NCBI GenBank assembly: GCA_044892525.1
Contig: CM097887.1
Coordinates: forward strand, 55,614,001-55,678,000
Reading direction: 5' to 3'
Source: Schmidtea polychroa
Taxonomy: Eukaryota
Length of the DNA stretch: 64,000 nucleotides
The notes below the pieces were generated by a model. The model did not search any database and was not told the DNA's origin. It saw only the letters and a list, made by a program, of their open reading frames with translations. The position numbers and the translations under genes were made by a program. This document shows, piece by piece, positions 6,842 to 45,397 of this stretch (its first letter is position 1; each line of letters begins with the position of its first letter).

Positions 6842-7599
6842 TAAGAATTTGTTTTTAAAAATTATATAATATTATTATAAAAATAAATGTTTATTCAGAT
6901 TTTCAAATAATAAAACAAGAGATTTTGCATAACTTTTAAAATTACTGTTTCATGTGATTGTACTACCGTCTACCACTTGATCTCAAGAGGTAAAAACTAT
7001 TTTTAATATAATTAACCAATAAAAATAAATATAAAATAAATAAAATGACGGATGTTGTGTTAGGTTATTATGACTTTGCTTGACTCCAGTGTTTTTTTAA
7101 ATTATGTAATTAAAACGTACAAATTTGATATAACTGATTAAGTTGGTGATTAGAATATCGAATCAAAATTTAATCTCAAGAATCAATTATCTCGTAAAAT
7201 TGGTTCCTCAAATAAATATAAAAACATAAAAAATAAAATAAAAAATTTTTGTAGTGTTTAAAATTTTCGATAAAGGTCGTTCAAATATCTAGCTAGTGCA
7301 AATAGTAAAGGCTATGAAATCCAAGAAATCAGACAGACTGGAACTTAGATGTAGGAATATAAAAGTCACCTAGTTTAAATTCGAAGCCTAGATGAAAAAT
7401 GTCGGGAAATGAGTAAATCATATCATGTAATAACAATTAAGTCAAAAGTCAACGTCACACAGCGAAAAAAAATAATTAAATTAGAATGCACAACAACCAC
7501 ACGCGAAACATATTGCTAAGAGCAAAACAAAAAATCGCTAAAGAGAAAGACAAAGAAGTCAAAAAAATAAAAGGGCGACCGTATAAAAATGCATGGTGA

Positions 7600-8475
7600 T
7601 GTTGGCGCTCAAGGCTGTGTTATTTTAAATTTGTTAGGGGTATTTATGGATCTTTTTGTGACTCCTTTCAAAACGCCTTCATGATTATTGTCTCTATGCC
7701 ATCTGTATACCCATGACGATAACCATGTTGGTGCTGTACACAGTAGTTGAAAATCCATGAGCAGGTGAGCTCTACTGCTAAAACTACTCCTCGTGATATT
7801 TTCATTTTCGGGTTCTGTACTGCCGATAGAAAGTTTTACGTCGTTGTTCATTATCTATTTCTTTCTTGGATTATTGTTGTTGATTCATGTAATTATGGTC
7901 CTCCTTACTATATGCTTTCTAATGTTATCTCCCAAAATTTTGTGCAGGGATCCGCCCGTATTTCCCAGTATAAAGAGCCATGTATACTTTCTCCAATACT
8001 CGTGAATATATAGCTTATCCTTCAAAAATTTGAGCAGGGATCTGCTTATATTTCCAATTCTGACCTATTTGACACCCAAACCACTCGTAGGTTCTATTAT
8101 ATTGCCCAAACTTAACTTTATCTACTTCCAACCGATCTCAGTTACTCTATCATTACTCCTAACTCAATAATATTCACAAAAATAACGGTGACGGAATCGT
8201 TCTATGCTACCTCTATTTAAAACAATGCTCCAAACTGTCCAACATCCGCTGTCGCATCTGCACGAGTCCCAACAGTTCATAAACATCTTTCAATTTGAAG
8301 ACTTTAAAATCATAAAAATCATAAAAATCAAATCAAATAACATTCATGTAAACTGTAAACATTACTAAAATTCAAAAGCGAAATAAACAATAAAAATAAC
8401 AAAACAACGAAAAAATTAACTAAACTAAATTGAACTTAAAGTTTTATTAAATCATGATATAACATAAAATTACTT
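7600..8475. repeat. LTR-like repeat starting TGTTGGCGCT; second copy at 55004-55890
   Basis: Colinear ~880-bp similarity with 55004-55890; TGTTGG terminus; contains the GTGAGC...GCCGATAGAA motif. No TSD found. Confidence 0.65.
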
Positions 8476-8971
8476 AGGGGAAAAACCTTCCTTATCCTCC
8501 CGAATTCTCCTAAGCTTCCTTCACGATTTGATATTCATCTCCCTTACGTGTGCCCATGATGATAAGTCATGTTGGTATTGGCACGCAGGTTGGAACTTGC
8601 GAACAGGTGAGCTCCTGTGTTAGAACTACTCTTCGCAACATTCACGGTACGGGTTCCTGAAGGCCGATAGAAGGACTTACATCTTTACACTGTCTGTCTG
8701 AGCTATGTCTCTATTTAATCCTCTATTTACCGGGACGTTAATAGGCATCAAGGAAAATTACAACTTCTCAACCAAACGCATACTTACAAGCATAAACACA
8801 AAGATCTTTTAATAAATTATATTCTACAGATAGTACAGAACGATGTTATTAAATCACGAAAGAATTTTCATGTTAATTGTCTGCTTTTATATCAAACGTG
8901 ATCGGCACGCTCAAGCAAGCAAGATGTCTTCGCTACAGAGGCGTGACGCTGGCTTACTTATATCGTTTCTC

Positions 8972-10057
8972 TGTTGGGGTTCAGTAGGAACCGGAATTGA
9001 AGGTTCGAAATTAAATAATAATTAATTAGAAGTATAACAAAAATAGTAATAAAAAATTACCGAAAATAGAAATTAAATACTAAAATTAAAACTAAAATAT
9101 AATTAGTAATAAATAATTACTAAAAATAAAACTATAGAAATTATTTAAAATATATAATAAAAATAGTAATTAAACAATTACTATTAATAGAATTATGGAA
9201 ATAAAATTTATATAAATACTAGTTAAAAATTAGATTACAGGAGGAGAAGAAATTAGAGACAAGAAAAATCAGAAGAGAATCCCTATAGTTATAAATAGAT
9301 ACGATCAGATCATTTTAATTCGGCATTCTTGACATTTAGAATTTAACCTAAAATTTTGGGAAATTTCATTTTGTCTATTGAATCAAGAAATTTCCATAGG
9401 AATATCGATCAAGAAATTAATTACTGGAATTATATTTATCACGAAATTCCTCGGAACCAAAGGATATTTTTATCAGGATTTTTCGCATCATCTATATAAT
9501 ATCGTAACTCCAATATCTATTGGAGTATTAATTAAAGTAAAAGGAAGAAATATTAGTAACCAGTTCGACAACCAATCTGTGGTTTCTCTGGCCCTTGTTG
9601 GAATAATTAATTAGTTAGTATTTTTGATTTGAAATAGATATATACATATAAATATTTTCATTTATTTAAATTAATATTAAAAGGGATTGCAACGTCAGCA
9701 CATATTTTTTGTAGTTGTTTCGTTTCAAATATAATTTAAAGAGTTAACCAATTTCTGGGTTGACTCTATAGCGTAAAATTTGGTGAACTACCCTGCTTCT
9801 TTTCCTTACACCTATATCGGGCTGTTGGCGCATTTAGGGCCAGCCTTGATTCGTAGAAATATTCTTCAGGGCGGTTTGAATAACCGTTTTCTTTACTTAG
9901 AAAAAGGCAGCGTGGTGTAAACGTGTAACTAACTTTTTATTGATAAATAAATATTTAAAACATATTTCTTATTTATTACCTATACGCATAAATTATTTAT
10001 TGGAGTCAGATAGAACGTTTTTGTGTTAGTTCGACTACCTACCCATCGAACCTAACA
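8972..10057 (+). repeat. 5' LTR
   Basis: TGTTGGGGTTCAG...CCTAACA; same length as 22812-23897, with about 4 substitutions seen by eye. Confidence 0.97.
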
Positions 10058-10060
10058 TTT

Positions 10061-10077
10061 TGGTGAGCCCGACGTGA
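10061..10077 (+). promoter_or_regulatory. Primer-binding site, tRNA-Trp
   Basis: TGGTGAGCCCGACGTGA lies 3 nt after the LTR. Its reverse complement TCACGTCGGGCTCACCA matches the animal tRNA-Trp 3' end (TCACGTCGGGGTCACCA) with one mismatch. Confidence 0.9.
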
Positions 10078-10156
10078 TAAAATTATCAGCGGGTAGATAT
10101 TGAAATAAAACAAAATAGCGTTAGGAACTAGAGCCAGAGTAAAACTGGATAATCAA

Positions 10157-11575
10157 ATGGCAGAGGAAGCTAATGTAAATGCATTTGCCAGATATCCCGC
10201 TCTGCCCGTAAAGGCATTCAGCGGTGATCCGGGAGAATTCCCAGAGTTTATGTCTGAATATTATCAGATGGCCAAAGCATATGCCTATCCAGATAATATC
10301 ATGATACAAAGGTTACCTATATATTTGAAGGGGCTGACAAGAGAAAAATATAACGATATAATGGCATTACCAGTTGCTCAAGCACCAAAAACATGGGCGG
10401 AAATGAGAGAACAAATGACTGCCCGAATATTGCCCGGAGATGCGGGAAGAATATTTAGACAACAATTTTATCATAGAAAACAGAATATCAATGAACATGT
10501 GGGGGAATTTGCACACCAGCTATCATTAATTGCTGAAAGAGCATTTGGACCAAAAACCACATGGGCAAAGTCAACAGAATTGTTAGTTAATGATCAGCTA
10601 TGGGCAGGACTTACTCCTACAATGAGGAACGCTCTAATATTACATACTAGTGATGATTTTGACGAATTGACACGGAAAGCTGTCGTAATTGAAAGCAGCT
10701 TGGAAAAGTCAACTATGTTCCTAGTAAACAGTGAAAGAACACCGGTAGAGTGTTTCAATTGCCATAGAAAAGGGCATATAGCGAAAGATTGTACCAGCAG
10801 GAAAAGTATGGACAATCGCAAAAGTATACAATGTACCAAATGTGGACGGAATAACCACGGTGCGGAAAATTGTAGAGTGCAGAATTTGCAATGCGAAAAA
10901 TGTAAACGTAAGGGACATGTGGCTGCAGTCTGCAAGACTAGAAGCCCTCAGAACAGCAATAATTTTAGCACAATTAAAAGAGATGATGTAAATTCATCAG
11001 GAAAGATAAAATGTCACGGATGTGGGAAATTCGGACATATGATGAGGTCATGTCCTCAGAATCAGAGTGGAAATACGGGTCAGTTCAATAAAAATACCGA
11101 TAAGGCTAATGTGAACAAGCCTAAGACAACTTTTATGGTTAACCAGGATCAAGGGTTAACTTATCTGCAACAACTGGAAATGGAAATCCAGGAGGAAAAG
11201 AATAGGTTGGCTAGATTAACCGACCAAGAAGGTACCATCTTTATGGTAGAAGTTGGAAGAGATGAATTTCTCAGAAAAAAGGACTCCGTTAGGGAGGACC
11301 TTCAGGAAACGGAATCAGAGGAGAGTTCCGATGATGAACCTAGTATGCCCACCATACTAAGCGAGTTCGATAGAACCTTGCCAGGGAAAGCAAAGGTAAA
11401 AGAAGGGTCAGATACCCTAACAAAATGTTTAAAACTGGTGGATTCCAGATATGAGTACCAGCAGAAGCTGGCCAGACAATTGGGAAAATTGGGAGAAACA
11501 GAAATTAAAATTCATGAAATCGATACAGTAGTAAAACTGATATCGCAGGTCGAAGAAGTATCCAAAATATCATAA
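10157..11575 (+). CDS. gag: Gag (capsid plus four CCHC zinc knuckles); ends at a +1 frameshift
   Basis: Retrotransposon gag-like N-terminus (F.G.P.EF..F...Y...A.A...LP.YL.G); CX2CX4HX4C four times (CFNCHRKGHIAKDC, CTKCGRNNHGAENC, CEKCKRKGHVAAVC, CHGCGKFGHMMRSC). Confidence 0.93.
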   Translation: MAEEANVNAFARYPALPVKAFSGDPGEFPEFMSEYYQMAKAYAYPDNIMIQRLPIYLKGLTREKYNDIMALPVAQAPKTWAEMREQMTARILPGDAGRIFRQQFYHRKQNINEHVGEFAHQLSLIAERAFGPKTTWAKSTELLVNDQLWAGLTPTMRNALILHTSDDFDELTRKAVVIESSLEKSTMFLVNSERTPVECFNCHRKGHIAKDCTSRKSMDNRKSIQCTKCGRNNHGAENCRVQNLQCEKCKRKGHVAAVCKTRSPQNSNNFSTIKRDDVNSSGKIKCHGCGKFGHMMRSCPQNQSGNTGQFNKNTDKANVNKPKTTFMVNQDQGLTYLQQLEMEIQEEKNRLARLTDQEGTIFMVEVGRDEFLRKKDSVREDLQETESEESSDDEPSMPTILSEFDRTLPGKAKVKEGSDTLTKCLKLVDSRYEYQQKLARQLGKLGETEIKIHEIDTVVKLISQVEEVSKIS

Positions 11576-11825
11576 CGACACGTACAAAATCCTAAGGAAA
11601 TTAGGAAAACTCATGGAACATGAGTGGAATCTCCAAGATGCCCAGCTCAATATAAAACTCCCACAGGATAGAGAGTATAATCTCGATATAAATGTAAGAA
11701 GTCGAGCCGATAAATTAATGGAAACGTTGACAAGTATTAAGCATCAAGGATATGACTTATACTTATGTGGAATAAAATAAGAAGCAAACCAAACACTTCT
11801 ACAGAACGGGATACTCCCAGGTAGA

Positions 11826-14800
11826 GTGACTAAGCTCACAGCAAAGAGAGCACAAAAGCCAGTAGCAGTAATGGATCAAGATAGCGTATTCTTGATTACT
11901 CAAATGGAAATAGAGAGTTTGGAAGAAACTCAACAATTAACCCACCGACTAGGGTTGGAATTGCAGAAATCTCCACGAGATGGAGAAACTATAAAGGAAA
12001 TACTGGACTGGATGTTAGTATTACGAATACCAGTAGATTTGTTGGAAGCAATAATTCCACTTATACTACCAGTGGTAAAGGAAACAAGCCCATTCCAGAC
12101 GCAAATCGAAGCGCTGATGAGGAAAAATGGGAAAGCTATCCGAAGTCAGCCTGATAGACAAGGCAACATTAATCTAGACGTGCGAATGATGGGAAAAGAA
12201 CCATTAACAATGATTTATAATTGTTATATCAAGGTCAAAATATTGAGGAGAGATGTGATTGCCACCGATCAAACTACAGGTATATTTCTGATAATGGTCC
12301 ATGGTAGGCAAGTTGATGATGATGAGTATCTAGTGGATGTGGGTTGTCTACCGTTGGCAACAACCACGGTAATGATCATCCCAGTAACTCCACCGGAGTC
12401 CCAGTGGTCACTAATGAGACTTCCAGATATAGCAAACGAAATTGTGGAAGAGATTGAGGAAATAAGGCTAGAGGAAATTAATCCCTGTCAAATGGTGGAC
12501 ATTGACGAGGAAGATTACTTCTCAGAGTACGTCAGATTAAATCCAGGAGAAACAAACGTAGGAGCTACTACGTCACAAGCTATAACAAATCCGGAGACTG
12601 AAAAACCTCCGGAGAAAGTGAAAAAAGATGGACGAGGACGTCCTAGAAAGGATCAAATGAAACCTCCACCCAAGGAGCAGTTAAATCCGGAAACGATTCG
12701 GAAAATTCAGTTAAAAACATTAGCAGGGATAGCTCAAGAAATGGACGACCAGGCGGGAGATGAGACAACGTCAGAAAGGTCGTTATTGTGGCAACGTATA
12801 CAACAAATGATCGGGATTATCAGGCCCGAATGGAGAATTTCAAAAACCAAGGGGATCGAAGTTAAGAAGATAACAAAAGAAGTCAAAAAGTCAATGGATA
12901 GGATATCCAAAGATGTATCAACAGGAGATATTCAGGATACCATAGAAGCATTCGTACAGCAAGGATTAACAAGAGGGAAAGTGTTAACATCACTATCATT
13001 GTTAATTCAAAATGCCTTAGCCCGAGTATGGGATGATAAAAAGCTTATAGAACGAGAAATCGATCAAATAGTCGAAATGGTAGATTATTACCTGGAGGTA
13101 TGGATGACCGTAAACAAATTTTGGGAAAAGGAAATTATTCCAAAACCACGATATGAAGTCGTGGAAGAAGCCATAAATAATGGTAGTTCAGGCACAGGAA
13201 ACATGACAAGCATGATCCTGATGTTCCTAGTAATGATGGGCATATTAAAACAAACAAATTCATTAACAGTATTTGACTGTGGAAATCCCAAATTATCTCG
13301 GGTATATTCGCTAGTAGATGCAATTGAGTGCAAAGAGGCGTATCCCGAGAAGGTCCAGCAAGGGGAAAAGGTAGAATATTATGTCTACCAAGAGAGTGAA
13401 TTCTATAGAACTACGATAAAGGAATGTAGAGTTCAGAGAGCTACATTCGAATATTATTGCGGTAGTAATAGCTATTCTGCTTTTCTATCCGCGACATTAA
13501 TACCAAGGCCGGTAAACATAATGCCCGAAGATTGCTTAGATGCATTTCGAAAAGGAAGTGTGAGGATAGACAACGAGGTATCAATCTCAGCAGAAATCGG
13601 GAAAACATTGGGAATAACAATCACTAGAGGAGGAACCATTGCCTCAGATGGAACATGCGAAGGTAGAAAGAAAATTCGCGGTAGCAATTTAGTTTCCTAT
13701 GTGGTAGACATAGAAGATTACTCAGTGGAGCTACGAGAATACGAGGGAACATTCGATGTGGCCACAGGAAAATTGATGGCACATCCGCAATGCAATGCCA
13801 AGTTCGGTAGTTGTAAAACGGGAACCACTACATTAATTTACGAACAAATGAGAGATCATTGTGAGTTGGCTTTTCTCAAGAAAATTCCTTTAGGAAAACT
13901 AAATGGAACTAAATATCGGGATTCCCGGAATCCACAAAAGGTTTGGGATAAAGCAAAAACGTTGAAGAAAATCAACAAACAAGAGAAGGAAGATATTGGA
14001 GAGGAAAACACACCTCTAGTATTGATATCGGAAGATAAGACGGAAGCAATTCGATTTGTCCGAAAAGATAAAAAGACTAAATGTGGGAAAAGAGTATACG
14101 AGACGAACTACAAAGGAATTTTTCTGTCAAGAGAATATATTCGAAATTCCAAGGTCCTCCATGTAAAGGATATCAAAATCACGAATTATATAAATAATAA
14201 AGTAGATTATTTATATCATGACTTGCAAGGACAAATGCAAGATATGTATCAAGAGGTGATACTAAACGATTGCAAGCTAAATCGTGAAATAGTTCGAAAT
14301 AGATTAGCAATATCTATCGTTAACCCAGAGTTGGTTACTCCAATGTTATTGGAAGATGGAATGTTTGGTAGAATCATGGGAGAAGCTATATATAGCTATG
14401 AGTGTAAACCAGTGGAAGTACAATTAGCCAGGTTTAATCAATGCACTTTAGAACTGCCAGTGTCTTACCAAGGAAAATTGAGATTTGTTATGCCAGTAAC
14501 CAGAAAGTTACTTGAGGAAAACGCTAAACCCCAACCAGCTATATGCAACCCGGCAATATCACCATTATACAAAATAAATGACATGTGGATATCTCTTCCG
14601 GAAAGAAAACCATCTACACGACAAGTAGAGACCTTGGAGGTAACTAAGTTAAAAGATAATATGGAATTCAAGTCATTAGACGAATTAGCAAAAGGAGGGA
14701 TTTATACTCCCGACGATATCGAGGAAGCAAGAAGGACATTGCTATTCCCACAAATCAGAGACAGAGGTATCACGGAAATTATAAGAACAATTTATCATGA

Positions 14801-16460
14801 TAGCTTAATCAGACCAGACTACAATTTATTATTTGGACCGGAACACTATAAAGAAGCAGCAAAGAACGTGATGATGAAAATATGGGGACGATTCACCAAT
14901 TTTGGTATTTTCGTCGCGGGATGTTCAGGAATTTACGCAATATTTGTAATTTTAAAGCTGATAATTACACAACTGATGTCAACATATAGCATATTCAAAA
15001 TTGGAGGATGGTCATGGAAACTGCTATTAGGACTATGTCCTATGTGTGCAGAGTTTGCATTATTCAAACATCACAGAAAGGAAATTAAAGAAATTAGACA
15101 GAAACATTTGGTCAAGCATGAAGTAATTGGAACAGAAATGGAGGAGTATTCTAGTTATCGGGACGATAACAATTCAAAGGGAGGAGGTAATGGAGGCTCT
15201 CGTGAAACATCTTCAAGATCAAATCAATCACGAAAACAGAACTACAACAAAAAACCGAATCAGCAACAAAGAAAATCGAGATTTAAGGAATATCTTCCTC
15301 CATATGACCAATCAAAGGAAATCTACGGGAGAAAACAATCCTCAGAAGGAGAATATGACAGTTCCGACCAAAAATTCGACATAAGGTCACCCAGATTTAA
15401 GAAAAGTCCAAGATATGTACAATTGCCAACTTTGAGGAGTTTACCATCCGCACCAAACGAAGGGCGGGAACATTCAAGGGAAACAACACTCAGAACAGGA
15501 CGACACCAATGGAAAATCGGTGAAGATACCATATTTAATAATCTGACATGTTCAACATTGCCAGAATTACCTAAAGTGCATTATCCAAAGGAAGCGTTAG
15601 AATCAATTAAAGCTAAATTTAAAGAGTATAATCCTCAACTGAGTGATCCTGAATTACTGGAAGCAGAACAAACGAGAGCAAATACAATCGGTATCTCGCA
15701 TGATACTATCTTGATGGTCAATAACCCAGTGAACTTGGATAAAAAGCCAATGATAAAAATAAGAGTGAACCGACATACAGTTAATGCGGTGATAGACTCA
15801 GGAGCAGACGGTACCATAATAGAAGCTAAATTGTTAAACCATCATGAACTGCAGTCGCTAAAACCGGCAGGAGTAAAATTAACAGGAGCAAACGGATCAT
15901 CATTAAACGTAATAGGGTCATTATCCTGCCAGATTAAGCTATGTGACCAGGAGCTCCATCACGACATCATAGTGATGAGAAGTCTCCCAGCCGAATGTCT
16001 ATTGGGTATGGACGTTCTAAAAAGACTACGAGGAGTAGTATTCGATTGTGCATCTGGATTGTTAATCCGAGCACGAGGTAAAAAGAGAAAAATTTACAAC
16101 GATGATACAGCTTATATAGATCATACAACTATCATACCACCCAGAGCAGAAACAGTATGCTTTGTAGCTACAAGCAATAATTGGGAAGGGGAAGTTGTAT
16201 TTGAACCAGACGAAAGATTTTCGGAGAAATACAATATACCAGTTACGCATAGCGTTGGTTTAATAGTCAATGGCAGAATACCAATCAGGGTAGCCAATCT
16301 GGACATTAAACCACTGTACTTATATCCAGATACCAGAGTGGGCAGAATCTGGAAACAAAACGAACCACAAGCCACGAGAGAAGGGTCGATACTCACCGTA
16401 AAGGCAGAAGAAAGAGATCCAGACATTGAGTACTATGATGCTCCTACAGCAAATATTTGA
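11826..16460 (+). CDS. 1544-aa ORF: Gag-linker + chuvirus-like glycoprotein + aspartic protease
   Basis: The frame is open upstream to ~11541 apart from TAA 11778. It contains an AT-hook-like GRGRPRK, an internal signal peptide, a Cys-patterned ectodomain, a TM region, then VIDSGADG protease. Confidence 0.9.
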   Translation: MTKLTAKRAQKPVAVMDQDSVFLITQMEIESLEETQQLTHRLGLELQKSPRDGETIKEILDWMLVLRIPVDLLEAIIPLILPVVKETSPFQTQIEALMRKNGKAIRSQPDRQGNINLDVRMMGKEPLTMIYNCYIKVKILRRDVIATDQTTGIFLIMVHGRQVDDDEYLVDVGCLPLATTTVMIIPVTPPESQWSLMRLPDIANEIVEEIEEIRLEEINPCQMVDIDEEDYFSEYVRLNPGETNVGATTSQAITNPETEKPPEKVKKDGRGRPRKDQMKPPPKEQLNPETIRKIQLKTLAGIAQEMDDQAGDETTSERSLLWQRIQQMIGIIRPEWRISKTKGIEVKKITKEVKKSMDRISKDVSTGDIQDTIEAFVQQGLTRGKVLTSLSLLIQNALARVWDDKKLIEREIDQIVEMVDYYLEVWMTVNKFWEKEIIPKPRYEVVEEAINNGSSGTGNMTSMILMFLVMMGILKQTNSLTVFDCGNPKLSRVYSLVDAIECKEAYPEKVQQGEKVEYYVYQESEFYRTTIKECRVQRATFEYYCGSNSYSAFLSATLIPRPVNIMPEDCLDAFRKGSVRIDNEVSISAEIGKTLGITITRGGTIASDGTCEGRKKIRGSNLVSYVVDIEDYSVELREYEGTFDVATGKLMAHPQCNAKFGSCKTGTTTLIYEQMRDHCELAFLKKIPLGKLNGTKYRDSRNPQKVWDKAKTLKKINKQEKEDIGEENTPLVLISEDKTEAIRFVRKDKKTKCGKRVYETNYKGIFLSREYIRNSKVLHVKDIKITNYINNKVDYLYHDLQGQMQDMYQEVILNDCKLNREIVRNRLAISIVNPELVTPMLLEDGMFGRIMGEAIYSYECKPVEVQLARFNQCTLELPVSYQGKLRFVMPVTRKLLEENAKPQPAICNPAISPLYKINDMWISLPERKPSTRQVETLEVTKLKDNMEFKSLDELAKGGIYTPDDIEEARRTLLFPQIRDRGITEIIRTIYHDSLIRPDYNLLFGPEHYKEAAKNVMMKIWGRFTNFGIFVAGCSGIYAIFVILKLIITQLMSTYSIFKIGGWSWKLLLGLCPMCAEFALFKHHRKEIKEIRQKHLVKHEVIGTEMEEYSSYRDDNNSKGGGNGGSRETSSRSNQSRKQNYNKKPNQQQRKSRFKEYLPPYDQSKEIYGRKQSSEGEYDSSDQKFDIRSPRFKKSPRYVQLPTLRSLPSAPNEGREHSRETTLRTGRHQWKIGEDTIFNNLTCSTLPELPKVHYPKEALESIKAKFKEYNPQLSDPELLEAEQTRANTIGISHDTILMVNNPVNLDKKPMIKIRVNRHTVNAVIDSGADGTIIEAKLLNHHELQSLKPAGVKLTGANGSSLNVIGSLSCQIKLCDQELHHDIIVMRSLPAECLLGMDVLKRLRGVVFDCASGLLIRARGKKRKIYNDDTAYIDHTTIIPPRAETVCFVATSNNWEGEVVFEPDERFSEKYNIPVTHSVGLIVNGRIPIRVANLDIKPLYLYPDTRVGRIWKQNEPQATREGSILTVKAEERDPDIEYYDAPTANI
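13203..15065 (+). CDS. env: Envelope-like glycoprotein domain, chuvirus-G / class III fusion protein-like (within the 1544-aa ORF)
   Basis: Signal-like MTSMILMFLVMMGILKQTNS. Motifs FDCG..SL...EC, C......YYCG, G...DGTCEG, YINNKVDYL...Y..V....C.L, G...GEAIY...C.PVEV......C..ELPV, GGIYT.DD...., and C-terminal hydrophobic WGRFTNFGIFVAGCSGIYAIFVILKLII...GWSWKLLLG follow the chuvirus-type glycoprotein pattern as I recall it. Confidence 0.8.
15735..16060 (+). CDS. Retropepsin-like aspartic protease domain
   Basis: PMIKIRVNRHTVNAVIDSGADGTII (Asp codon 15795), flap GANG, and CLLGMDVL motif. Confidence 0.92.
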
Positions 16461-19400
16461 AGTGCTAACCAGAAAGGAAAACATTCAAGTAAATATGCTG
16501 TTGAGGAAATATGACCAGGTATTCGCGAAACATGAATACGATCTGGGAAAAACAAACCTGTTAGAACATGAGATTGTTCTCACCAATACAAAACCTATAA
16601 AGTTGAGACCATACCGTATTCCATTCAGTCTGGAGGAATCAGTAGATAAACAGGTGAAATTGATGTTAAAACATGGCATAATCAGACATAGTAAATCACC
16701 ATATCAGTCACCAATGATAGTGGTGGCCAAGAAGGATGGATCAGTACGATTATGTAACGACTATCGCATGGTTAACGAAGCAACATGCAAAGATAGCCAT
16801 CCATTGCCATTGTTAGATTATATCTATGGACGCATGAGGAATGCTAGGTTCTTCTCAGTAATGGACGCTCAAAAGGGATTTTATCAAATTAAGCTAAAAG
16901 ATGAGACTATACCAATAACAGCATTTTCTACGAGTATGGGCCATTACGAATATAACGTAATGCCATTTGGACTCACCGGAGCTCCAGCCACATTTCAAAG
17001 AGCAATGAATTTGATGCTCATGGATGTACATCATGCGATGGTATACATTGACGACATCATAGTATTCTCGCCAAATTTGGAAAAACACTTGGAACATTTG
17101 GAAGATGTGTTCAAGAGGTTGATCAATGCCAACATGAAAGTGAAACCAACCAAATGTAAATGGGCCGAACCAGAAGTGGTATATGTTGGCCATATTATAT
17201 CACGAGACGGGGTTAAACCCGATCCAGCTAATGTCGAAAAGGTAAAGAATTTCCCGGAGCCTAAAACCGTTAAACATATCAAAGGGTTTTTAGGTCTAGT
17301 TGGATACTACAGAAAATTCATTAGAAACTTTTCGGTTATAGCTTTCCCACTCACGCAGTTAGAAGGCAAAAATGTCAAATTTGTGTGGGGAACAGAACAG
17401 CAAGAAGCATTTGATATGCTCAAGGAAAGACTCATCAAGCCACCTATATTGCGATTCCCAGACTTTGAGAGACAATTTTTGGTTATGACAGATGCCAGCA
17501 CTCGGGGCATAGGTGCTGTGTTAGGTCAAAGAGATGACCTAGGGGACGAGTATGCAATTGCATACGCTAGCAGAGGGTTAAAACCACACGAGAAAAACTA
17601 CGCAATGATAGAACTAGAGGCTTTAGCAATTGTGTATGCTATAACCCAGTTTAGGACTTATCTATGGGGTTGAAAGATCATAGTGTATACCGATCATAGA
17701 CCATTACAGTGGCTGACGAAACACACAATGGATACATCAAAACTGGTCAGATGGGCATTAATTTTACAGCCATATGACATAGAAATCCATTATAGAAAAG
17801 GAGATCATAATGGAAATGCAGACGCTTTATCGAGAATGGACCAGGAGGAGGAAGCAGAAGATGTGAAGGAAGGACGTCTCGAAGGGACTATCTTCACACT
17901 GACTCGAGAAGCCAACCGGCTAGTTGATTTAATGGAGGCACAAAAAGCTGATGAAGAAATCAATGCCATTCGACAAGCCTTAGAAGCGAAATACGTGCCC
18001 ACAGAATTCACGAAATACTGGGAAAAGAATAAAGATAAATTTGTGCTGGAAGAGGGATTAGTTAAATATTCAGATATACGAGATAACATTATAATGGTTC
18101 CTAAGAAATACCGTGAAGCACTCATGTTGCAGTATCACGATGGAGCCTTAGGAGGCCACCTGTCATCTAGAAAAACATTGTCGAGGTTAAAACAAAAATA
18201 TTTTTGGCCCGGTATGAAACAAGATGTTAAAACCTGGTGTCAGACATGTAAGATCTGTATCACCAGAAGAAATACCGGAAAGAAACCACACGTACCGATG
18301 AAGCCGATGCCAGTACCATCTACACCTATGGAAATGACGGCAATGGACGTGTTGGGGCCATTCAAAGAATCTAATAGCGGAAACAAGTACATATTAGTTT
18401 TCTGCGATTACTTGACTAAGTGGCCAGAAGCCTACCCGATGCCTAATCACAAAGCTGATACAATAGCTAGAATTTTCGTTGAACAAATTGTCTTTAGGTA
18501 TGGAGTACCTACGAAGCTATTAACAGATCGAGGAGCTGATTTCATGAGTAATTTGCTCAAAGGAATAAATGATTATTTCGGAGTTCTAAAGTTGAACACT
18601 TCCCCATATCACCCACAGACGGATGGCCTAGTAGAGCGATTTAATGGAACATTAGCTAATATGTTAGCATCATATGTAAATTCAGGGCAAACGGATTAGG
18701 ACATCCACATTCCATCCTGTTTATTTGCATACAGGAATGCAGTACACGAGGGAACAGGTGAAACGCCATTTTACCTAATGTACCTAAGGCAAAGTAAAAT
18801 GCCAGTAGATCTGTTGTTTTTCCCTAAAGCAACAAAGTATTTAGATCAGGAAGATTATCTAATGGAAATGAGGGAAAGAATGCAGGAAGCATGGACTAGA
18901 GCAGGTCTCAGTATAAAATACAATCAGGAGGCATCCAAAGATTATCATGACCGAAAAGCCAAGGATCATGGCATATTGGTTGGAGACCAGGTGATGTTGG
19001 AAAGTCATTATAACAAGAAAGGCTTATCACCAAAACTCATGCGAAATTTCAAAGGGCCATACGAGGTATTGAGAACCACAGACACAAATCTCATATTACA
19101 ACTTGTAGCCAACAGAAAAGCAGAACCAATAATGGTACATGCTAATCGGTGTAAAAAGTGCGAAATCTCAACAAAGGGAACCTCGGGAAATTCAAAAGTA
19201 AAAGCACCAGAGAAACAAGTGAAACTAAACACTACCGAAGAACCACAAGAGCACCGATACCCATTGAGATCACGGGGTGTTCCAAAATCGGTAACCTTTT
19301 TGTTGATAATAAGCGGTATGATGACTTTAGCAATGGCAAAAAGGGATAGAAAGGCATATTTTCAGCCTATGGCTATGCAAGTGGAACACTTACATTTTAT

Positions 19401-20220
19401 AAGAACGTATCACGGAATTAGCATACTCACAACATGCGATAATGCCACAAAATTCAATTTACATTTCTACAACAGGTACTTGCGGATCCGTCAACTCGAT
19501 TCAGAAGAAAAAGAGTGGGATTTATATGATTTAAAAGCAGAGACGGATTATAAACTGCATATTGCAGCGTCACGGTTATATCGGAATGGTTGGTATACCT
19601 ATCACGTATCAAATTGGATCCTACGGACGGCAGATTTCACAAATCGCATATCGATTTCCTACGAAAGGGATAAAGTAAAGTTTAGCCAGCAAATTAACAG
19701 GGAGGAGAAAGTGAAAATCAGCATTCGAGACGGATCAATCACGAGAGGAACATTATGGTTAGACCAGAACTCTCCCTCCCAGGAAATGTATCTAAATCAG
19801 TCAGTAGAATATTCGGTTTTAGTTATATACTATAGTCCGAGGAAACGGGAAGACGATAGGTGTTTCGAGGTATTTGAAGAGATTCTACCTCTGAAACAGC
19901 CTGTTATAACGAAAATACCACCAAAAGTAGTCAGAGAGAACATGGTGATACATCCCGAAATGTGGCAACATCTTAGACAATTGTCACCTATCAAACAAAT
20001 ATCTTGTCAAACGCCCCCAAACCTGACAAACTGTTGTGATTGTAATGCCATCACAAACTTTAATGCAGGATATATCCTGAAAATACCCGTAGGGGTATGG
20101 GTTACGGTATCGGCCGTACTATCGCTAGTAACTACACTGATAGCTATGGGTATTTGGACCAAGCTATATTTTAGACAAGCCATAAGAGCTTACGATGGAG
20201 TACTGATGTCGCAATTATGA
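16426..20220 (+). pseudogene. pol: pol RT-RNase H-integrase plus C-terminal membrane protein; one frame, interrupted by TGA 17671 and TAG 18697
   Basis: RT: RLCNDYR, MPFGL.GAP.TFQR, YIDD at 17044. RNase H: VMTDAS, ELEALAIV, YTDH. IN: H-X-GH...CQTC, MDVLGP, LLTDRG, GLVERFN, FKGPY. ORFs 16426, 17683 and 18778 share a frame. Confidence 0.95.
19291..20220 (+). CDS. Type-I membrane protein fused in frame to the integrase C-terminus (possible FN3-like ectodomain)
   Basis: Hydrophobic signal-like VTFLLIISGMMTLAMA; FN3-like LYDLKAETDYKLHIAA; Cys cluster NCCDC; TM IPVGVWVTVSAVLSLVTTLIAMGIW; short tail. Confidence 0.65.
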   Translation, partial: VTFLLIISGMMTLAMAKRDRKAYFQPMAMQVEHLHFIRTYHGISILTTCDNATKFNLHFYNRYLRIRQLDSEEKEWDLYDLKAETDYKLHIAASRLYRNGWYTYHVSNWILRTADFTNRISISYERDKVKFSQQINREEKVKISIRDGSITRGTLWLDQNSPSQEMYLNQSVEYSVLVIYYSPRKREDDRCFEVFEEILPLKQPVITKIPPKVVRENMVIHPEMWQHLRQLSPIKQISCQTPPNLTNCCDCNAITNFNAGYILKIPVGVWVTVSAVLSLVTTLIAMGIWTKLYFRQAIRAYDGVLMSQL

Positions 20221-20346
20221 CAATTACAGACTCCCCCGAGGGAAAAATCATATATAAATATTTATATATATATTAAAATCTATATTTACGTAGAGCTCCA
20301 GGTAGCATTAAAATTCAGCATATGTAGATCTTTTATAATAAGACTC

Positions 20347-22035
20347 ATGCATATCTTTTTAGCCTATTATGGCATATCAGTATATCTGATATTATGGTTA
20401 ATGATTTTTATTTCAGGAATGCAGAGCCATCCAATATCTCAATACCAAGGAAGACATAGCATTATACGTGCTACGACCTTGCTAAAGGAAAAACTTATTT
20501 ACAAAAACCTGGAGAAGCAGGTTATGGAGCAAGGTAGAAAAGGCCAAAGGCACTGGTTTTACGGTCATTGTTCAGGCATACCCAATAATTTCAAATTTGA
20601 CGAGGCTCCAAAGCGTCAAATGATTATCTCCAGAATCCCGGGTAAGCATAACGGTAGTATTAGGCTTACCGAGGTCATGCCTGAGTTTGGTAGACATAGT
20701 CTGACCAACCACCTGTGGATACACGCCATTAACAAACCAATTACGGTTTATGTTCCTGGCGCCACAAACCCTATTTTGCTACAAAAGCACACTACCCTCG
20801 AAATAGAAAACGGGGACGGAAGGGAAAAGAACATCTCACTGTTATGTGAAGGTATAGATACCATCATAGCAATGGAAATCCTGGAACCTCACAGAGAAGC
20901 ACAAACAAGATGGGTTAATGACCCAAACTGGACATATAATGTCAACGATAACGACATTAAAACATTTAAGTCCTTTGTTAGACAGCGTTTGGACCCTAGA
21001 CAAGATGACAACCTCACCATTTTCGTAGCAGCTCACTATGCTACACTACGACAATTCCTGAAACCGGCAATCGTGGCCATTTCAATCTTACATTTCAATG
21101 GCGATTTGATACTCAACACGAGAGTCACCCCCAGAGCACAGGTCAAACATTACCAATCGCATGCGCATGGTATGACCGAGAAAGAAATAATAGGACAGTT
21201 CGACGGAGAAGACTGTGCCGAACGAATCAGGAAAATCTGCGATGGGAAAATCATCGTGGGATTGCTAGTTAAGGACCTACTAGAAGTTATTAGATTCCCA
21301 ATGCAGCGCGCTCTCGGAATCCGTGAGTTAGGCGCAGCTAAATGTCTCGAAAGTAGGGACCTAAAGAAATGCAACTGGTATTACCGTTTGGCATATTTGG
21401 CAAAGGCAGTCACCGGTAAAGAAGCACATCACTTCTCGGATCTTCAAACGGAGAGTGATGTAACTACCATCAAGGAGATTTACGATAATCTACGGGACAT
21501 CTGGGTCGACGACATTTCACCGGACACCCGGAAAGAGGTGGTGTCTTCACAAATCAAGCAGATGGAACCCGGTACCTCAAGCAGGCAGAAACCACTAGCT
21601 ATGGAGAGCTATGTGAAAGAAGATATCCCCAGGACGAAGTTGTTGAAAATAGTGGAAGAAGATTCCTTGTCGCCGCCAGCCATTTCAATCGCTGATGAAG
21701 ACGACTATGCCACTTGTGAGAGTGCAGACGATAACTGCCTCCAAGTCACCCTTACCAATGACGGTAGAGTGGTGAATTCGGCTAAAATGGAAGTAGAAAA
21801 ACCCCAGCCAGCAGAAAAGTTAGTTGAACGGGTCACCAAGATCCTGAAAGCATTGGCCCCGTTGGGTGAACCCAAACAAGGAGCTGAAGGGGGAACATTA
21901 CCCCAAGCGGTGGCACCATTACTCAAGCTACAAGACTTGAAGTTTAAAAAGAGACCAACGGAGAAACCCCCCCCAGAAAGAGGACAAGGAGAAAAATGTT
22001 CCTACCTCTACAAAGAGGAAAACGGAGATTCCTAA
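20347..22035 (+). CDS. Accessory ORF3 containing a degenerate REX4/ISG20-like DEDDh exonuclease domain (~21015-21490); probable true start ATG 20419
   Basis: AISILHFNGDLILNTRVTPRAQVKHYQSHAHGMTEKEIIG...RIRKICDGKIIVG aligns by eye with REX4-like RVSIVN..G.VLYD..V.P...V.DYRT..SGI....L.......V..IL.G.ILVG. The catalytic DxE is absent. Confidence 0.7.
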   Translation: MHIFLAYYGISVYLILWLMIFISGMQSHPISQYQGRHSIIRATTLLKEKLIYKNLEKQVMEQGRKGQRHWFYGHCSGIPNNFKFDEAPKRQMIISRIPGKHNGSIRLTEVMPEFGRHSLTNHLWIHAINKPITVYVPGATNPILLQKHTTLEIENGDGREKNISLLCEGIDTIIAMEILEPHREAQTRWVNDPNWTYNVNDNDIKTFKSFVRQRLDPRQDDNLTIFVAAHYATLRQFLKPAIVAISILHFNGDLILNTRVTPRAQVKHYQSHAHGMTEKEIIGQFDGEDCAERIRKICDGKIIVGLLVKDLLEVIRFPMQRALGIRELGAAKCLESRDLKKCNWYYRLAYLAKAVTGKEAHHFSDLQTESDVTTIKEIYDNLRDIWVDDISPDTRKEVVSSQIKQMEPGTSSRQKPLAMESYVKEDIPRTKLLKIVEEDSLSPPAISIADEDDYATCESADDNCLQVTLTNDGRVVNSAKMEVEKPQPAEKLVERVTKILKALAPLGEPKQGAEGGTLPQAVAPLLKLQDLKFKKRPTEKPPPERGQGEKCSYLYKEENGDS

Positions 22036-22051
22036 GAGCACGAAAAAGAAG

Positions 22052-22510
22052 ATGCCTAGGATATCCATCCAAGATGAGGATGACGATCTCCTAGAAACCC
22101 ACTATCAGCCACCAGATCCTGCGTTGACCAAGATATTGGCAACAAAGAGTGAACCCACGATTTCAGGAGAGCCTATTATCATAAAGGAAGGCGAGTTCGT
22201 CGGAAGGGGCAATTCGATTAAAATACGGGAAGATCTCGACAGAGAAGATCCTAGTTGGTGGCAGAGACCCGACAGCAAATGGAAACCGCGTATCAAGGAA
22301 TACGACGGAGGCTTAATCCATGAAGTAGCCATATCCAATTTCCCCGATTACGGAGTATTGGAGGCTAATGAGGGCTCGTACATTATCTCCTCAATTGTGT
22401 ACAAAGAGGTAAGTACACGGGAGACTTTGGTGGTCAGTTACAGACCTGACATTGTAGAACAAAGGATCCGTAACGAAAGTGCCAAGGTCATGAAAAGGAG
22501 AAAATACTAG
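22052..22510 (+). CDS. Accessory ORF4, 152 aa, unknown function
   Basis: Intact ATG-started ORF 16 nt after the ORF3 stop, inside the element; basic C-terminus MKRRKY. Confidence 0.6.
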   Translation: MPRISIQDEDDDLLETHYQPPDPALTKILATKSEPTISGEPIIIKEGEFVGRGNSIKIREDLDREDPSWWQRPDSKWKPRIKEYDGGLIHEVAISNFPDYGVLEANEGSYIISSIVYKEVSTRETLVVSYRPDIVEQRIRNESAKVMKRRKY

Positions 22511-22796
22511 CAATTCGGCTATGTGTTCAATGGACCTAGCAATTTGCTATACGTCCTCAATCCCAACACCTTCGACAACTCAATCCAATCCAAATATTCA
22601 GATTGATAGACATTATGAACAACATTTGATAAATCTGATTTTTAATTTTGTTTAACCATCTTTGAGTTTGACTTTGATTACTTTATGTATATACATTTTA
22701 TTCAGTCGTTTTATTTTATTTTTATATTTTTTTAATTTTATGTATTGGCTGCAATTGTCTTATCTTTACCGCTTTAATTTTCGGGACGAAAATCTT

Positions 22797-22811
22797 GTTA
22801 GGGGGAAGACA
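22797..22811 (+). promoter_or_regulatory. Polypurine tract
   Basis: GTTAGGGGGAAGACA immediately before the 3' LTR. Confidence 0.85.
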
Positions 22812-23897
22812 TGTTGGGGTTCAGTAGGAAACGGAATTGAAGGTTCGAAATTAAATAATAATTAATTAGAAGTATAACAAAAATAGTAATAAAAAATTAC
22901 CGAAAATAGAAATTAAATACTAAAATTAAAACTAAAATATAATTAGTAATAAATAATTACTAAAAATAAAACTATAGAAATTATTTAAAATATATAATAA
23001 AAATAGTAATTAAACAATTACTATTAATAGAATTATGGAAATAAAATTTATATAAATACTAGTTAAAAATTAGATTACAGGAGGAGAAGAAATTAGAGAC
23101 AAGAAAAATCAGAAGAGAATCCCCATAGTTATAAATAGATACGATCAGATCATTTTAATTCGGCATTCTTGACATTTAGAATTTAACCTAAAATTTTGGG
23201 AAATTTCATTTTGTCTATTGAATCAAGAAATTTCCATAGGAATATCGATCAAGAAATTAATTACTGGAATTATATTTATCACGAAATTCCTCGGAACCAA
23301 AGGATATTTTTATCAGGATTTTTCGCATCATCTATATAATATCGTAACTCCAATATCTATTGGAGTATTAATTAAAGTAAAAGGAAGAAATATTAGTAAC
23401 CAGTTCGACAACCAATCTGTGGTTTCTCTGGCCCTTGTTGGAATAATTAATTAGTTAGTATTTTTGATTTGAAATAGATATATACATATAAATATTTTCA
23501 TTTATTTAAATTAATATTAAAAAGGATTGCAACGTCAGCACATATTTTTTGTAGCTGTTTCGTTTCAAATATAATTTAAAGAGTTAACCAATTTCTGGGT
23601 TGACTCTATAGCGTAAAATTTGGTGAACTACCCTGCTTCTTTTCCTTACACCTATATCGGGCTGTTGGCGCATTTAGGGCCAGCCTTGATTCGTAGAAAT
23701 ATTCTTCAGGGCGGTTTGAATAACCGTTTTCTTTACTTAGAAAAAGGCAGCGTGGTGTAAACGTGTAACTAACTTTTTATTGATAAATAAATATTTAAAA
23801 CATATTTCTTATTTATTACCTATACGCATAAATTATTTATTGGAGTCAGATAGAACGTTTTTGTGTTAGTTCGACTACCTACCCATCGAACCTAACA
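22812..23897 (+). repeat. 3' LTR
   Basis: Near-identical to 8972-10057 and followed by TSD TCTC. Confidence 0.97.
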
Positions 23898-24690
23898 TCT
23901 CCTTCTGTCAACATGGCGTCGATATCTACTTGCAAATAAGGATCATGCTGAAAAATGGATGTAGTTGAAGGGATCATTCGATAAGAGTCTTTGGTAACAG
24001 GCACGATAGAGTTATTACTGGACACCTTAGCACTCGCCTCTTGAGCTGCGAACAAGGAGGCTTCTAGTGCTGCCATTTCGTTTCGACGACATTGCGTTCG
24101 TTCAGCGCGAGTGGGTCGTTTCCTTTTCCTCGAGTTAGTATTTACTGGGTCAAGCGAGACAATTCAGCCAATGTAGATACTGGAGGGAAATTGACGCGAG
24201 AATCATCACTCAAGATAGGGGCGATGATTGGTGGAAGTTCGGATCCGTGTCCATGACACTTTGATGGAGGCAAGATGGTGACTTCGTCTGTCTGGTGATG
24301 GATCGTGAAGACCTTCGATTTATCTATCACTGGATACTCCTTAACGCGATTCCGCAATTCGGATTCCGAGTAGATTTGATGGAGCGCCTCCCATTGGGCT
24401 TTGAATGTGAGGCTTTGGCACCGATTTTCTTCTAAGAGGCTACGAGGGCAATGTTCTAGCCGTAATATTTTCATATTGGCCTCCTTCATTTGTGGCTGGG
24501 AGAACCAGTGTGTTCTAGCGTATCGATACGCTTTTTCAGAACCCCTATGTATGCTTTTAGTTTATCCATGGCGGCATTTTTATCGGCACATGAAAACAAG
24601 GTTTCGGGCCGCGGTTGAGTAGATTCGGCTCTGGCATACTTAAACGAGAGAAATGAAATCGGCATCGTAAGAACTAATCAACATATTTCC
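23898..24690 (-). pseudogene. Decayed long-form WFSP ORF; the big Gypsy element is inserted into it and the remainder lies at ~8500-8971
   Basis: Minus strand reads KKRIDTLEH(T)WFSQPQMKEANMKILRLE across a frameshift. The other flank carries the family's downstream motif (8602-8683). Confidence 0.65.
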
Positions 24691-30539: not shown

Positions 30540-31358
30540 TCAGGACTCTCCGACGGATGAGGTCATCTCACGGGAAAATCCTCGTTTTTCCCACTCGGAG
30601 TCGGCGAGTAACTCGTCCAAATCGAAGAATTCGGAGGCGTTCTCCTCCCACGTCACCCCAGCGGCAGATATGATCCACCCTAGTGTTCTTGTTGTTAGGT
30701 CAATTACAGCAGGGACGTTATTGACATTACTCCCGAGGTCTGGCAGCTGCTTGGGCTGCTTCGCAGCTATTCGCTCACGCTGTTTCCTTTTGCGTTCAGC
30801 CCTTGATAGCTGCCGACGCTTTGGCTTGGTGGTCGATGAATTGTTTGGGGTTACCGCCGATGTAGAGGCGACGTTAGGCAGTACCCGACTATTTCCAACA
30901 ACAACCACCTCCAGTTGCTTTGGCGAGAGTTGTGTTTCTACGCACGGCCGGCAAGGTTTCTTCGAAGGGAGCGATGATCTGACAGAAGTATCGTGGTGGG
31001 CCGGAAAGAGATTGTCGGCTTCACCGATGGGAATTTTCACTATCTTTCTAGTTGCCGCGGCCTGGATGTACACTTTATGCAGCGCCTCGGACTTCTCCTT
31101 GATCAAACTTCTTTGGGCACGACTCTCGGAGATTAGAGCGTCCCGGCAATGTTCACTTCGGTGTAATTTCTTTTGGGTCTCTTTCATCTGGGCGGGACTA
31201 AACCATGTCCCTCTAACTCGTCTATCTTCTTTTTGTACCGTCCGATCTGGGTCTGCAGGTCCTTGATTATCACGTTCTTGTCGGAACAAGAAAAACAGGG
31301 TCTGAGGACGGTTTTTGCAGTGGGTAACATGTCTGCTAGCTAAGAAGAATAATAACAC
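30540..31358 (-). CDS. Long-form WFSP accessory ORF (272 aa; start uncertain)
   Basis: RVRGTWFSPAQMKE; basic KRRQLSRAERKRKQRER; acidic FFDLDELLADSE shared with the 43.8-44.4 kb copy; AATAAA downstream on the minus strand. Confidence 0.65.
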   Translation of the reverse strand: MLLFFLASRHVTHCKNRPQTLFFLFRQERDNQGPADPDRTVQKEDRRVRGTWFSPAQMKETQKKLHRSEHCRDALISESRAQRSLIKEKSEALHKVYIQAAATRKIVKIPIGEADNLFPAHHDTSVRSSLPSKKPCRPCVETQLSPKQLEVVVVGNSRVLPNVASTSAVTPNNSSTTKPKRRQLSRAERKRKQRERIAAKQPKQLPDLGSNVNNVPAVIDLTTRTLGWIISAAGVTWEENASEFFDLDELLADSEWEKRGFSREMTSSVGES

Positions 31359-32699
31359 TAAATGGGATAGATCAAATTGAGAAAATCATCATTTTTCGCC
31401 ACCATTCGTTAATCAATATTAGACATTTTTTCAGGAAAAGAAAAACGGATTATTTATCAAGAGGGATTTCCTATGCCATCAACCTAGGCGTACTCTGGGT
31501 GTTTATCTACTAGAAAATCAACTGACAACATTAGGCTTTACTTAACGAAGGTTGTACATCATTGTTAAAGAAAAATGAAAATTACATGTTTAAGAGGAAT
31601 TATTGGTGACGGAAATTTTTCTTGAAGAGGGTAAATAGCATTGAAAATTCAACCCGAACTAAATAATTACTAAGTGAAAAGTTAGCTAATCATTATAATG
31701 ATTTTATAGATAATTAGATAAGTTGGTTTTAATTCATCATTAAGTAAAAATATTAAATTTTTGCAGTTCCAGTAACAGACTTGGATTAATTGGGTTGCAT
31801 TTTGTTTGTATTTTATTTAGGCTTTCGATTATATTATCTATAATTTATTATAATTTTGTTTTCAAATCTCACATTTATTTACTATTTTAAAATTAATCAT
31901 TGAGTTGTTGGTGACTCGTATTATCATCACTCATGTCTAGTGCTTTCGGTAAATAGCCGAGATTTTTATCTGACACACCCGGTGGACTTTTCTCAAGTTA
32001 GCCGTTCGCGGTGAATTATCTACTATCGGGTTAGATGACTATGCGATCTCAAGGAACGTATCACCTGGAAGATAGACTCGTAGAATTATGGCTAGTGATA
32101 TCCGTGTTATTATTGGTGAGTACCAGCATGTGGACTTTGGCTATTAGAACTTGCAATGTGTGCATTTACACATGTGTGCGGGTACTCACTTCGTGAGGCT
32201 CTTATCCTATTTGGCAGCTTGCATGAATCATCAGATGTCATATTACATCGTGTTGAATTTCTATCTCTCGTGGAAATTTTGCATAGGCAGATTTTTCGTA
32301 CCGCTATTACTGGATGTAATTCGTTTCATAGACAAACTGGTCAACTATTCAAGCTATAATTTCTACTCCCCTCATGGATTTTATCATCATCAACATGTCC
32401 ACTGTCTATATCGAGTTGGAAGTTTATTAACTATCGCTGGAAATACAATTCGACGAAATGTGGATATTCCATCACCCTCTGTGGCATCTCTAAGACTCGG
32501 ATTTTATTCCCATGGAGGGTCTATCGGATCAGTTACCCCCCATCCTAACTTTGCCTCAGTTGCCACAAACGTTTGGTATTCGATATACAAGGGGACGACA
32601 TGTTTGATTGTTTTTATAAATACATTTTTCCTGACTAGATTCATTATTATTTTATGGTTTATTATTTTTGAGAACTATTTGTTGGTCACAATTCACCAC

Positions 32700-37450: not shown

Positions 37451-37868
37451 AACTATCTGGTGGGTTACAGGTGGTTGAATGTTTAAGTGCTGTTACCAGC
37501 GTAACCCAGAATACAACCTTGTTTTCCTCTTGGTACCCGTTGAGCAATCAACGTTGGTACTGTACCAAGGGGTTGAGTACTCGCAAAAAGTGAGCGCGTT
37601 AAGAGCACTATAATTGTCGAGCACTCTATGGGTTCACGGACGCCGATAGAAGGCACGTGTCCGATTTATTTCGGTCCCTCATCGAGATTGTTTTCCCCAA
37701 ACGCTTTTCTGCCAACCATCTTGTTTTAGACAACCGCAAAGTTCAATCACATACTCATTAGATAACAAGAATCATTTATTAAGCCACTACTATATTACAA
37801 GGTTTGTTTAGTCAGGAGGGTCGCACTCTCAAACGTCTCTCAGGGTCGTGGATTGGCTTCAGTCTCTT

Positions 37869-42900: not shown

Positions 42901-43303
42901 CTTTTTAAGATTTTTTTTATTTTTATTACTAATTTATTTATTTTTTCCTAAATTTTATTGTTTAAGGTAGCTTTTATGATGGTCATCGCCATTTTTATGG
43001 AATGTTCTGGGTTTTTCTGGAATCTTTTACTGTTTTTACCATCTTTTAAGTTATTCGAGTTTGTTTTTTGTAACTCTATGTTTATTTGGTTATTTTTGAG
43101 TTAGATTTTGCATAACTTCTTGCTTTTGTATAATTTTATTTAATTTCTGTGTTTATTCTTTGTTACTTTCTCCTTTAATTAATATTGTTTATTTGGTGTA
43201 AGTTTTAATATTTAACTATACTTGGTGCTTTTTTTACTTGCTGTGTACCTACACATTTCAGTCACAATTAGTATTTTGGGTCTAAAAATCAGTTCTAGCC
43301 CAA
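39972..43303 (+). repeat. Two ~1.1-kb direct repeats (39972-41096 and ~42170-43303) ending in CCCAACA; LTR-like
   Basis: High identity by eye and an LTR-like CA end, but no PBS after the first copy and no PPT before the second. Confidence 0.8.
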
Positions 43304-45333: not shown

Positions 45334-45397
45334 TTTAAAATTTTAACAAAATATTACATTGAAAATATAATTTTAAAATAAAGTACTACAATAAACC

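Follow-up and report, generated by a model that had tools for sequence, protein, structure and literature searches.

A predicted ISG20-like pseudo-nuclease fused to an oxygenase-like fold in the accessory gene of an env-carrying Ty3/gypsy element from Schmidtea polychroa

Introduction

Why would an LTR retroelement carry a nuclease-like protein that appears unable to cut? The question is raised by a reading frame at 20419-22035 (+) in a 64,000-nucleotide stretch of AT-rich eukaryotic DNA from Schmidtea polychroa (hereafter the window, to which all coordinates refer). Accessory genes of invertebrate retroviruses are, to our knowledge, barely known. A sequence-only reading had taken this frame to be retroelement-borne and to encode a REX4/ISG20-like DEDDh scaffold without its catalytic residues, and had suggested a pseudo-nuclease that was kept, as an RNA-binding decoy or a suppressor of small-RNA silencing, rather than a copy that had merely decayed. 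Here, we followed up these claims by profile searches, structure modeling, analysis of relatives and comparison with published elements.

The carrier element

The reading frame lies within a 14.9-kb LTR element (8972-23897, + strand), which bears out its retroelement-borne status, for the window's copy only. The 5' LTR (8972..10057, with TG...CA ends) and the 3' LTR (22812-23897) are both 1086 nt long and differ at 4 of 1086 bases, and a 4-bp duplication of the target site, TCTC, flanks the element (8968-8971 and 23898-23901). The primer-binding site (PBS; 10061..10078, +), located just 3' of the 5' LTR, presumably resembles tRNA-Trp, and a polypurine tract is present at 22800-22809 (+). Between these signals, gag with CCHC zinc knuckles (10157..11575, +; Pfam zf-CCHC, E 5.6e-10; Retrotrans_gag, E 0.016) is followed by env, a gB/mononegavirus-type fusion glycoprotein (11781..16460, +; PF24664, E 1.1e-87) with a transmembrane segment near 14907 in a TM scan, and by an aspartic protease in the same frame as env, at about 15738-16034 (Pfam gag-asp_proteas, E 6.9e-13). 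Reverse transcriptase, RNase H and integrase occupy 16402..18699 (+; Pfam RVT_1, RT_RNaseH, Integrase_H2C2 and rve). No Pfam match was found for the ∼470 amino acids between gag and the env ectodomain (11781-13200, +).

The integrase C-terminus, with a weak SH3_Tf2-1/MLVIN_C match, leads into an in-frame region that is probably membrane-anchored (18700..20220, +). The integrase frame itself continues for ∼300 amino acids (19282-20220, +), with a signal-like stretch and, by hydropathy, a C-terminal hydrophobic helix at 20098. No Pfam match was found for 19282-20217, and this accessory region, the element's second, is likewise unexplained.

The order LTR, PBS, gag-env-PR-RT-RH-IN, together with the gB-type env and the target-site duplication, is that of GAG-ENV-POL Ty3/gypsy errantiviruses, an arrangement reported for Nematoda, Bryozoa and Platyhelminthes (PMC13524379). 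Because about 67 of 100 env residues, counted by hand, are identical to those of Smed_errantivirus_4 in the supplement of that paper, we regard the element as of the planarian type. It resembles Smed_errantivirus_1-6 (env class C1a) in gene order, gB-type env and similar size, a likeness that rests on order and env; the window copy differs in being defective. The words 'exonuclease', 'nuclease', 'DEDD' and 'accessory' are absent from the main text of PMC13524379. Its supplement file 2 contains six Schmidtea rows that list no LTR or PBS, and the LTR search described there reached 3 kb past pol; a long 3' accessory region like that of the window element might explain these LTR-less rows.

We note that the present copy is defective at several places, probably including the tail of the accessory frame. 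The gag and env frames are separated by a shift in frame near 11540-11575 together with a stop codon at position 11778, the pol frame is out of frame with the protease where the two overlap (16402-16460), and in-frame stops occur at 17671 and 18697. Neither a second copy of the 20419-22035 frame nor any tRNA gene was found in the window.

Several other features were observed in the window. A gag-like ORF of 767 amino acids (58643-60946, +) has a CCHC knuckle and a weak SUMO-like match (PF11976, E 0.091); since a SUMO-like domain is named in planarian Burro elements (PMC6431247), this ORF may be a Burro-like fragment. A dispersed repeat occurs at 37458-38195 and 60900-61639, with related sequence at 24142-24561 and 30540-31385 (-) and pieces 80-97% identical; its coiled-coil ORFs share a 'WFSP' motif, and the repeat is probably another mobile element. 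An older dispersed pair is located at 7599-8115 and 55003-55519, and a near-identical duplication at 39972-41096 and 42171-43305 has a spacing of 2.2 kb. On the minus strand, a host-like ORF without interruptions at 44893-45342 belongs to the TMEM17/TMEM216 family (Transmemb_17, E 1.1e-21), and 4379-5384 contains bZIP pieces in two frames (E 1.7e-05 and 2.3e-04) that are probably exons of a host transcription factor.

The nuclease-like domain and its catalytic positions

On the basis of profile, model and alignment, residues 195-369 (21001..21525, +) would form an ISG20L2/REX4-like DEDDh pseudo-nuclease domain. Single-sequence searches gave little: the domain alone had no Pfam match at E<=1, the only Pfam match of the whole ORF and its domains, PspC (E 0.41), was judged spurious, and phmmer with the query alone against PDB reached ISG20L2 at E 0.0024 and ISG20 at E 0.2. 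The DEDDh match was found with a 44-sequence profile (the query and 43 relatives), which detected ISG20L2 (E 2.5e-32), ISG20 (E 5e-20) and SDN1 (E 4.3e-17). Pfam RNase_T was matched at E<=0.1 by 19 of the 44 aligned members, the query itself not being among them, and the Atlas features pointed to RNase_T at 0.95, 196 of 256 features being in common. An AF2 model built from the 44-sequence alignment had a pLDDT of 91.6 and a pTM of 0.88; the single-sequence model (pLDDT 38.8) was set aside. The modeled domain superposed on ISG20L2 with Z 18.8 and rmsd 2.3 over 158 aligned residues, Z to ISG20L2/ISG20-type structures (PDB 7yw5, 1wlj) ranging from 18.2 to 18.8, at a sequence identity to solved host-type enzymes of 15-16%. 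BFVD returned generic exonucleases and cupins only, with no two-domain match.

The two motifs on which the claim of catalytic loss had been based are located where the sequence-only reading placed them, FVAAHYAT beginning at 21022 and LQTESDV at 21442. With the DEDDh positions in register, the five residues are A204, H206, L287, L342 and D347, that is, four of the five are lost and only D347 (21457) is left. The losses already proposed, of the ExoI Asp and Glu (A204 at 21028 and H206 at 21034) and of the ExoIII His (L342 at 21442), could thus be retained, but the register had to be corrected and one more loss added, that of the ExoII acid: L287 (21277) aligns with the Asp of ISG20 GHDLKHD. The Asp in VKDLL is off by one position. 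Thus, as judged from the model, the DEDDh scaffold resembling REX4/ISG20 is real and lacks the catalytic set, and the protein does not belong to the active REX4/ISG20 family.

The N-terminal domain

Residues 1-159 (20419..20895, +) are predicted to form a double-stranded beta-helix of the 2OG-Fe(II) oxygenase/AlkB-like fold. The closest structures were prolyl 4-hydroxylase (2jij) and OsALKBH1 (5xoi), both at VIA Z 10.6 with rmsd 3.0-3.4 over 139 aligned residues, followed by ALKBH3, 6 and 7 (Z 9.7-10.2). The likeness includes a beta-helix core with AlkB/P4H-type extensions, with Z 9.5-10.6 over 134-150 residues for P4H and ALKBH1, 3, 6 and 7; these values, taken from the two-domain model, exceed the 7-8 typical of chance arrangements.

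At the sequence level, the Hx[D/E]...H iron triad is absent from the query domain, and a loose form of the pattern within residues 41-160 occurred in no more than 4 of 44 rows, its position varying between them. No Pfam 2OG match was found for the domain, and when the family was compared by hhalign with the single sequence of E. coli AlkB, the probability was 0.1%. P55, N56, K59, R66 and E153 are conserved at >=90% among 18 members lacking the nuclease residues (hereafter dead members), and H102 is conserved in the intact ones. A retroviral aspartic protease was also considered, following an Atlas lead (recognition 2009, below 2300; 118-134 shared features), and was rejected: no D[T/S]G occurs in residues 1-165, and the model matches beta-helix folds. 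On the model, the N-terminal domain is therefore oxygenase-like in fold and probably not a member of the AlkB family. It may carry the function of the accessory protein.

Reading frame and expression of the accessory gene

The ORF comprises 538 codons from Met 20419, a start that agrees with those of its relatives, so the length of more than 500 codons previously ascribed to it stands; its intactness probably does not extend to the tail. Downstream of the nuclease-like domain, a low-complexity tail runs to the stop at 22035 and is overlapped by a further frame at 21941-22510 (together 21526..22510, +). Among 592 window frames, this overlapping frame was the best match for the C-terminal 120 amino acids of three relatives, P0001, P0002 and P0012 (E 0.0015, 0.1 and 0.28, respectively), and these matches make a frame break within the 21941-22035 overlap likely, although the evidence is modest. 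The C-termini of P0006, P0017 and P0046 had no match in the same frame. With a pooled C-terminal profile of the relatives, the two frames could not be told apart (E 0.023 vs 0.034).

A splice-acceptor-like site, TTTTTATTTCAG (20405..20416, +), ends 2 nt upstream of the ATG. By a criterion chosen after this site was seen, it is the sole such site on the plus strand within the element, the whole window containing 21 (8 on the plus and 13 on the minus strand). No convincing splice donor was found, the single match lying within the PBS. We infer that the ORF would be translated from a spliced subgenomic RNA, either cis-spliced or SL-trans-spliced.

Relatives of the accessory protein

An exhaustive search among 1.84 billion representatives identified 78 relatives at E<=0.001. 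A word-indexed search with the alignment confirmed 3 of 8000 candidates, 2 of them new and both intact; with a single sequence, none of 889 candidates was retained. Longer fused forms were found in none of 3450, which is weak evidence. All three motifs were present in 63 of the 81 rows, and the 18 lacking a motif were dropped. Three truncated or misaligned rows (P0007, P0020, P0072) were also removed, as were the query and P0074, which is of the cellular REX4 type; 58 relatives could then be scored, with Glu accepted at ExoII. All five residues were kept in 36 of them and none to two in the other 22; not one relative kept three or four. Since a dead sequence served as the seed of the search, the 36:22 ratio is biased and does not represent a census of the family.

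In a tree of residues 41-198, which contains no nuclease columns, the query grouped with P0001, P0002, P0006, P0012, P0017 and P0046 (98% SH-aLRT support); every one of the seven is dead. The proposal that the pseudo-nuclease was kept had been open to the objection that sister copies might retain DEDDh; the six nearest relatives do not, and retention is seen in the more distant members. Identity within this clade is 18-35%, and the ORFs of the six relatives are open over 435-609 amino acids. Of 290 ungapped columns, 16 do not vary, compared with ∼2.5 expected under a rough equal-rate model. The five catalytic positions read AHLLD, ASFLE, AEFLD, SSILM, VGILM, DKINL and ELLDR across the seven members. 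Moreover, at least 7 base differences separate the five codons of the query from catalytic codons, whereas ∼0.03 substitutions, as derived from LTR divergence, would be expected in these 15 bases since insertion, which excludes a recent decay of the query copy. On this sequence evidence, the nuclease residues were lost in the lineage of the element long before the present insertion, and the fold and the non-catalytic motifs stayed constrained. The accessory protein is very probably a kept pseudo-enzyme, as had been supposed.

Intact and dead forms are interleaved within the family, and dead members are on long branches. A branch with 96% support that placed all dead forms on one side was rejected as proof of a single origin, as the catalytic columns were included in that tree. 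Without them, five changes of catalytic state were counted, which is compatible with one origin; the N-terminal tree required seven, of which at least two were forced. Every tree came from a quick search and has long branches. When cellular REX4-type rows served as the outgroup, intact forms were nearest the root, and therefore catalytic loss would be the derived state. Catalysis has probably been lost more than once. The mean identity of the nuclease domain was 26% among dead and 37% among intact members, and the faster divergence of the former fits relaxed as well as changed constraint.

Comparison with known systems

An RNase D-like domain occurs in nematode Cer elements. In bdelloid rotifers, the DEDDy ORF3 of Juno/Vesta LTR elements and Terminons is a DnaQ-like exonuclease encoded by an additional ORF downstream of pol (PMC5408684, PMC6431247). 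The rotifer protein is RNase D-like DEDDy with its residues intact, whereas the product of the window ORF is of the DEDDh type, belongs to a clade of dead members and is fused to another domain; assignment of the latter to the rotifer type was rejected, as intact relatives show H-x4-D and the best structural matches are DEDDh. Similarly, an extra ORF with a 2OG-oxygenase-type domain is found in Phalaenopsis Gypsy elements, where the AlkB/2-ODD protein is an active m6A demethylase (PMC9289625). The Phalaenopsis domain is recognizable by sequence, whereas that of the window keeps the fold only, lacks the iron triad and is fused to a nuclease fold.

Among host proteins, ISG20L2, ISG20 and REX4 share the fold and profile homology with the window ORF, and the 36 intact relatives keep D-E-D/E-H-D; the differences are the loss of four of five catalytic residues, the fusion to a 2OG-oxygenase-like domain and the location inside an LTR element. 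A DEDD fold kept without catalysis is known from PML PXL (PMC13659232, PMC10123124), Exuperantia (5l80; Z 10.5 to our model) and Maelstrom/EXD1. For PML PXL, a dead DEDDh fold, nucleic-acid binding has been shown (PMC13659232), and Maelstrom and EXD1 are cited in PMC5408684 as dead DEDDh folds that bind nucleic acid. These proteins, which the window protein resembles in principle, are products of host genes of other DEDD subfamilies; nucleic-acid binding by the window protein is predicted. The available sections of PMC6338049 and PMC10123124 contain no description of an ISG20-like pseudo-nuclease ORF in an errantivirus, and neither such an ORF nor an oxygenase-nuclease fusion was found in the literature searched, Repbase and further supplements being beyond its scope.

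Possible roles of the accessory protein

The ORF, an accessory gene in an env-carrying Ty3/gypsy element of the planarian type, encodes, as judged from the model, a compact two-domain protein, neither domain of which has a catalytic set. We propose that it would be expressed from a cis-spliced or spliced-leader subgenomic RNA, for which the acceptor-like site before the ATG was counted as evidence. Binding rather than cutting is probable because the lack of catalytic residues in both domains is common to distant relatives, and a non-catalytic nucleic-acid binder is the most likely nature of the protein. Acting without catalysis, it would hold single-stranded RNA in the former substrate cleft; the bound RNA would most simply be that of the element or its 3' ends, shielded from host 3'-5' nucleases and piRNA-pathway factors, or the protein would compete with these factors. 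This more specific role, binding of single-stranded RNA that shields the element from host nucleases or piRNA factors, is plausible, if somewhat short of probable. The near-neutral charge of the nuclease domain (23 K+R, 21 D+E) gives no support to RNA binding, and since the copy is defective, its ORF may make no working protein. None of the results supported the RNA-binding decoy or the silencing suppressor suggested by the sequence-only reading.

Alternatively, the function could lie in the barrel at the N-terminus, which would offer a pocket for a ligand or protein, or a rewired site round R66/H102/E153, with the nuclease fold as a folding partner or docking surface. Conservation of the barrel is the same in dead as in intact members (mean identity 19.6% vs 19.7%), whereas the nuclease domain is relaxed in the former, the conserved barrel residues described above persist among dead members, the high pTM suggests a fixed packing of the two domains, and repeated catalytic loss (at least two and up to seven changes) implies that cutting is dispensable. 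However, P238, R239, D262, G300, R302 and W362 on the nuclease side are also nearly invariant among dead members, and we consider this explanation rather unlikely, if worth keeping in view. If D262, invariant in 18 of 18 dead members, and the retained D347 were instead parts of a rewired site, perhaps with H206, the domain could still be a nuclease, but the five positions vary freely in the seven-member clade, so that no new site is shared, and two-metal DEDDh catalysis requires four acids; this idea can hardly be upheld.

Mimicry was considered as well: as a dominant-negative decoy, the dead domain would replace a host REX4/ISG20L2-type nuclease in a complex, or the intact version from related elements. 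The closest solved relatives are indeed ISG20L2 and ISG20, and intact and dead forms are interleaved in the family, but the low identity to solved host-type enzymes speaks against mimicry, and such a decoy seems improbable. That the domain is simply a relic under little or no selection might be suggested by the about six other breaks in the query copy and the long branches of dead members. Recent decay, however, cannot give at least seven targeted differences, the six relatives combine low identity with full open ORFs and shared invariant columns, and no intermediate catalytic states occur among the 58 relatives, so that decay is very unlikely.

A broader reading would take in the whole family: invertebrate env-carrying retroelements would carry an accessory protein with an oxygenase-fold barrel and an ISG20-like nuclease, once active and repeatedly turned into a double pseudo-enzyme, that antagonizes the host piRNA or RNA-decay machinery as an anti-silencing factor. 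We regard this reading as speculative and, taken as a whole, doubtful.

Implications

Each ingredient has precedents: LTR elements with an additional DEDD or AlkB ORF are known, and so are dead DEDD binders; the function is suggested here from sequence. The joining of a 2OG-oxygenase-like barrel with an ISG20-like domain appears to be unreported, and it occurs in a type of element found in a tractable RNAi model animal. The family also offers a natural comparison on one scaffold, with 36 relatives having the full active site and 22 without it, the losses being probably recurrent. Planarian LTR elements are heavy piRNA targets (PMC8532177), and the family may bear on the means by which transposons withstand piRNA control.
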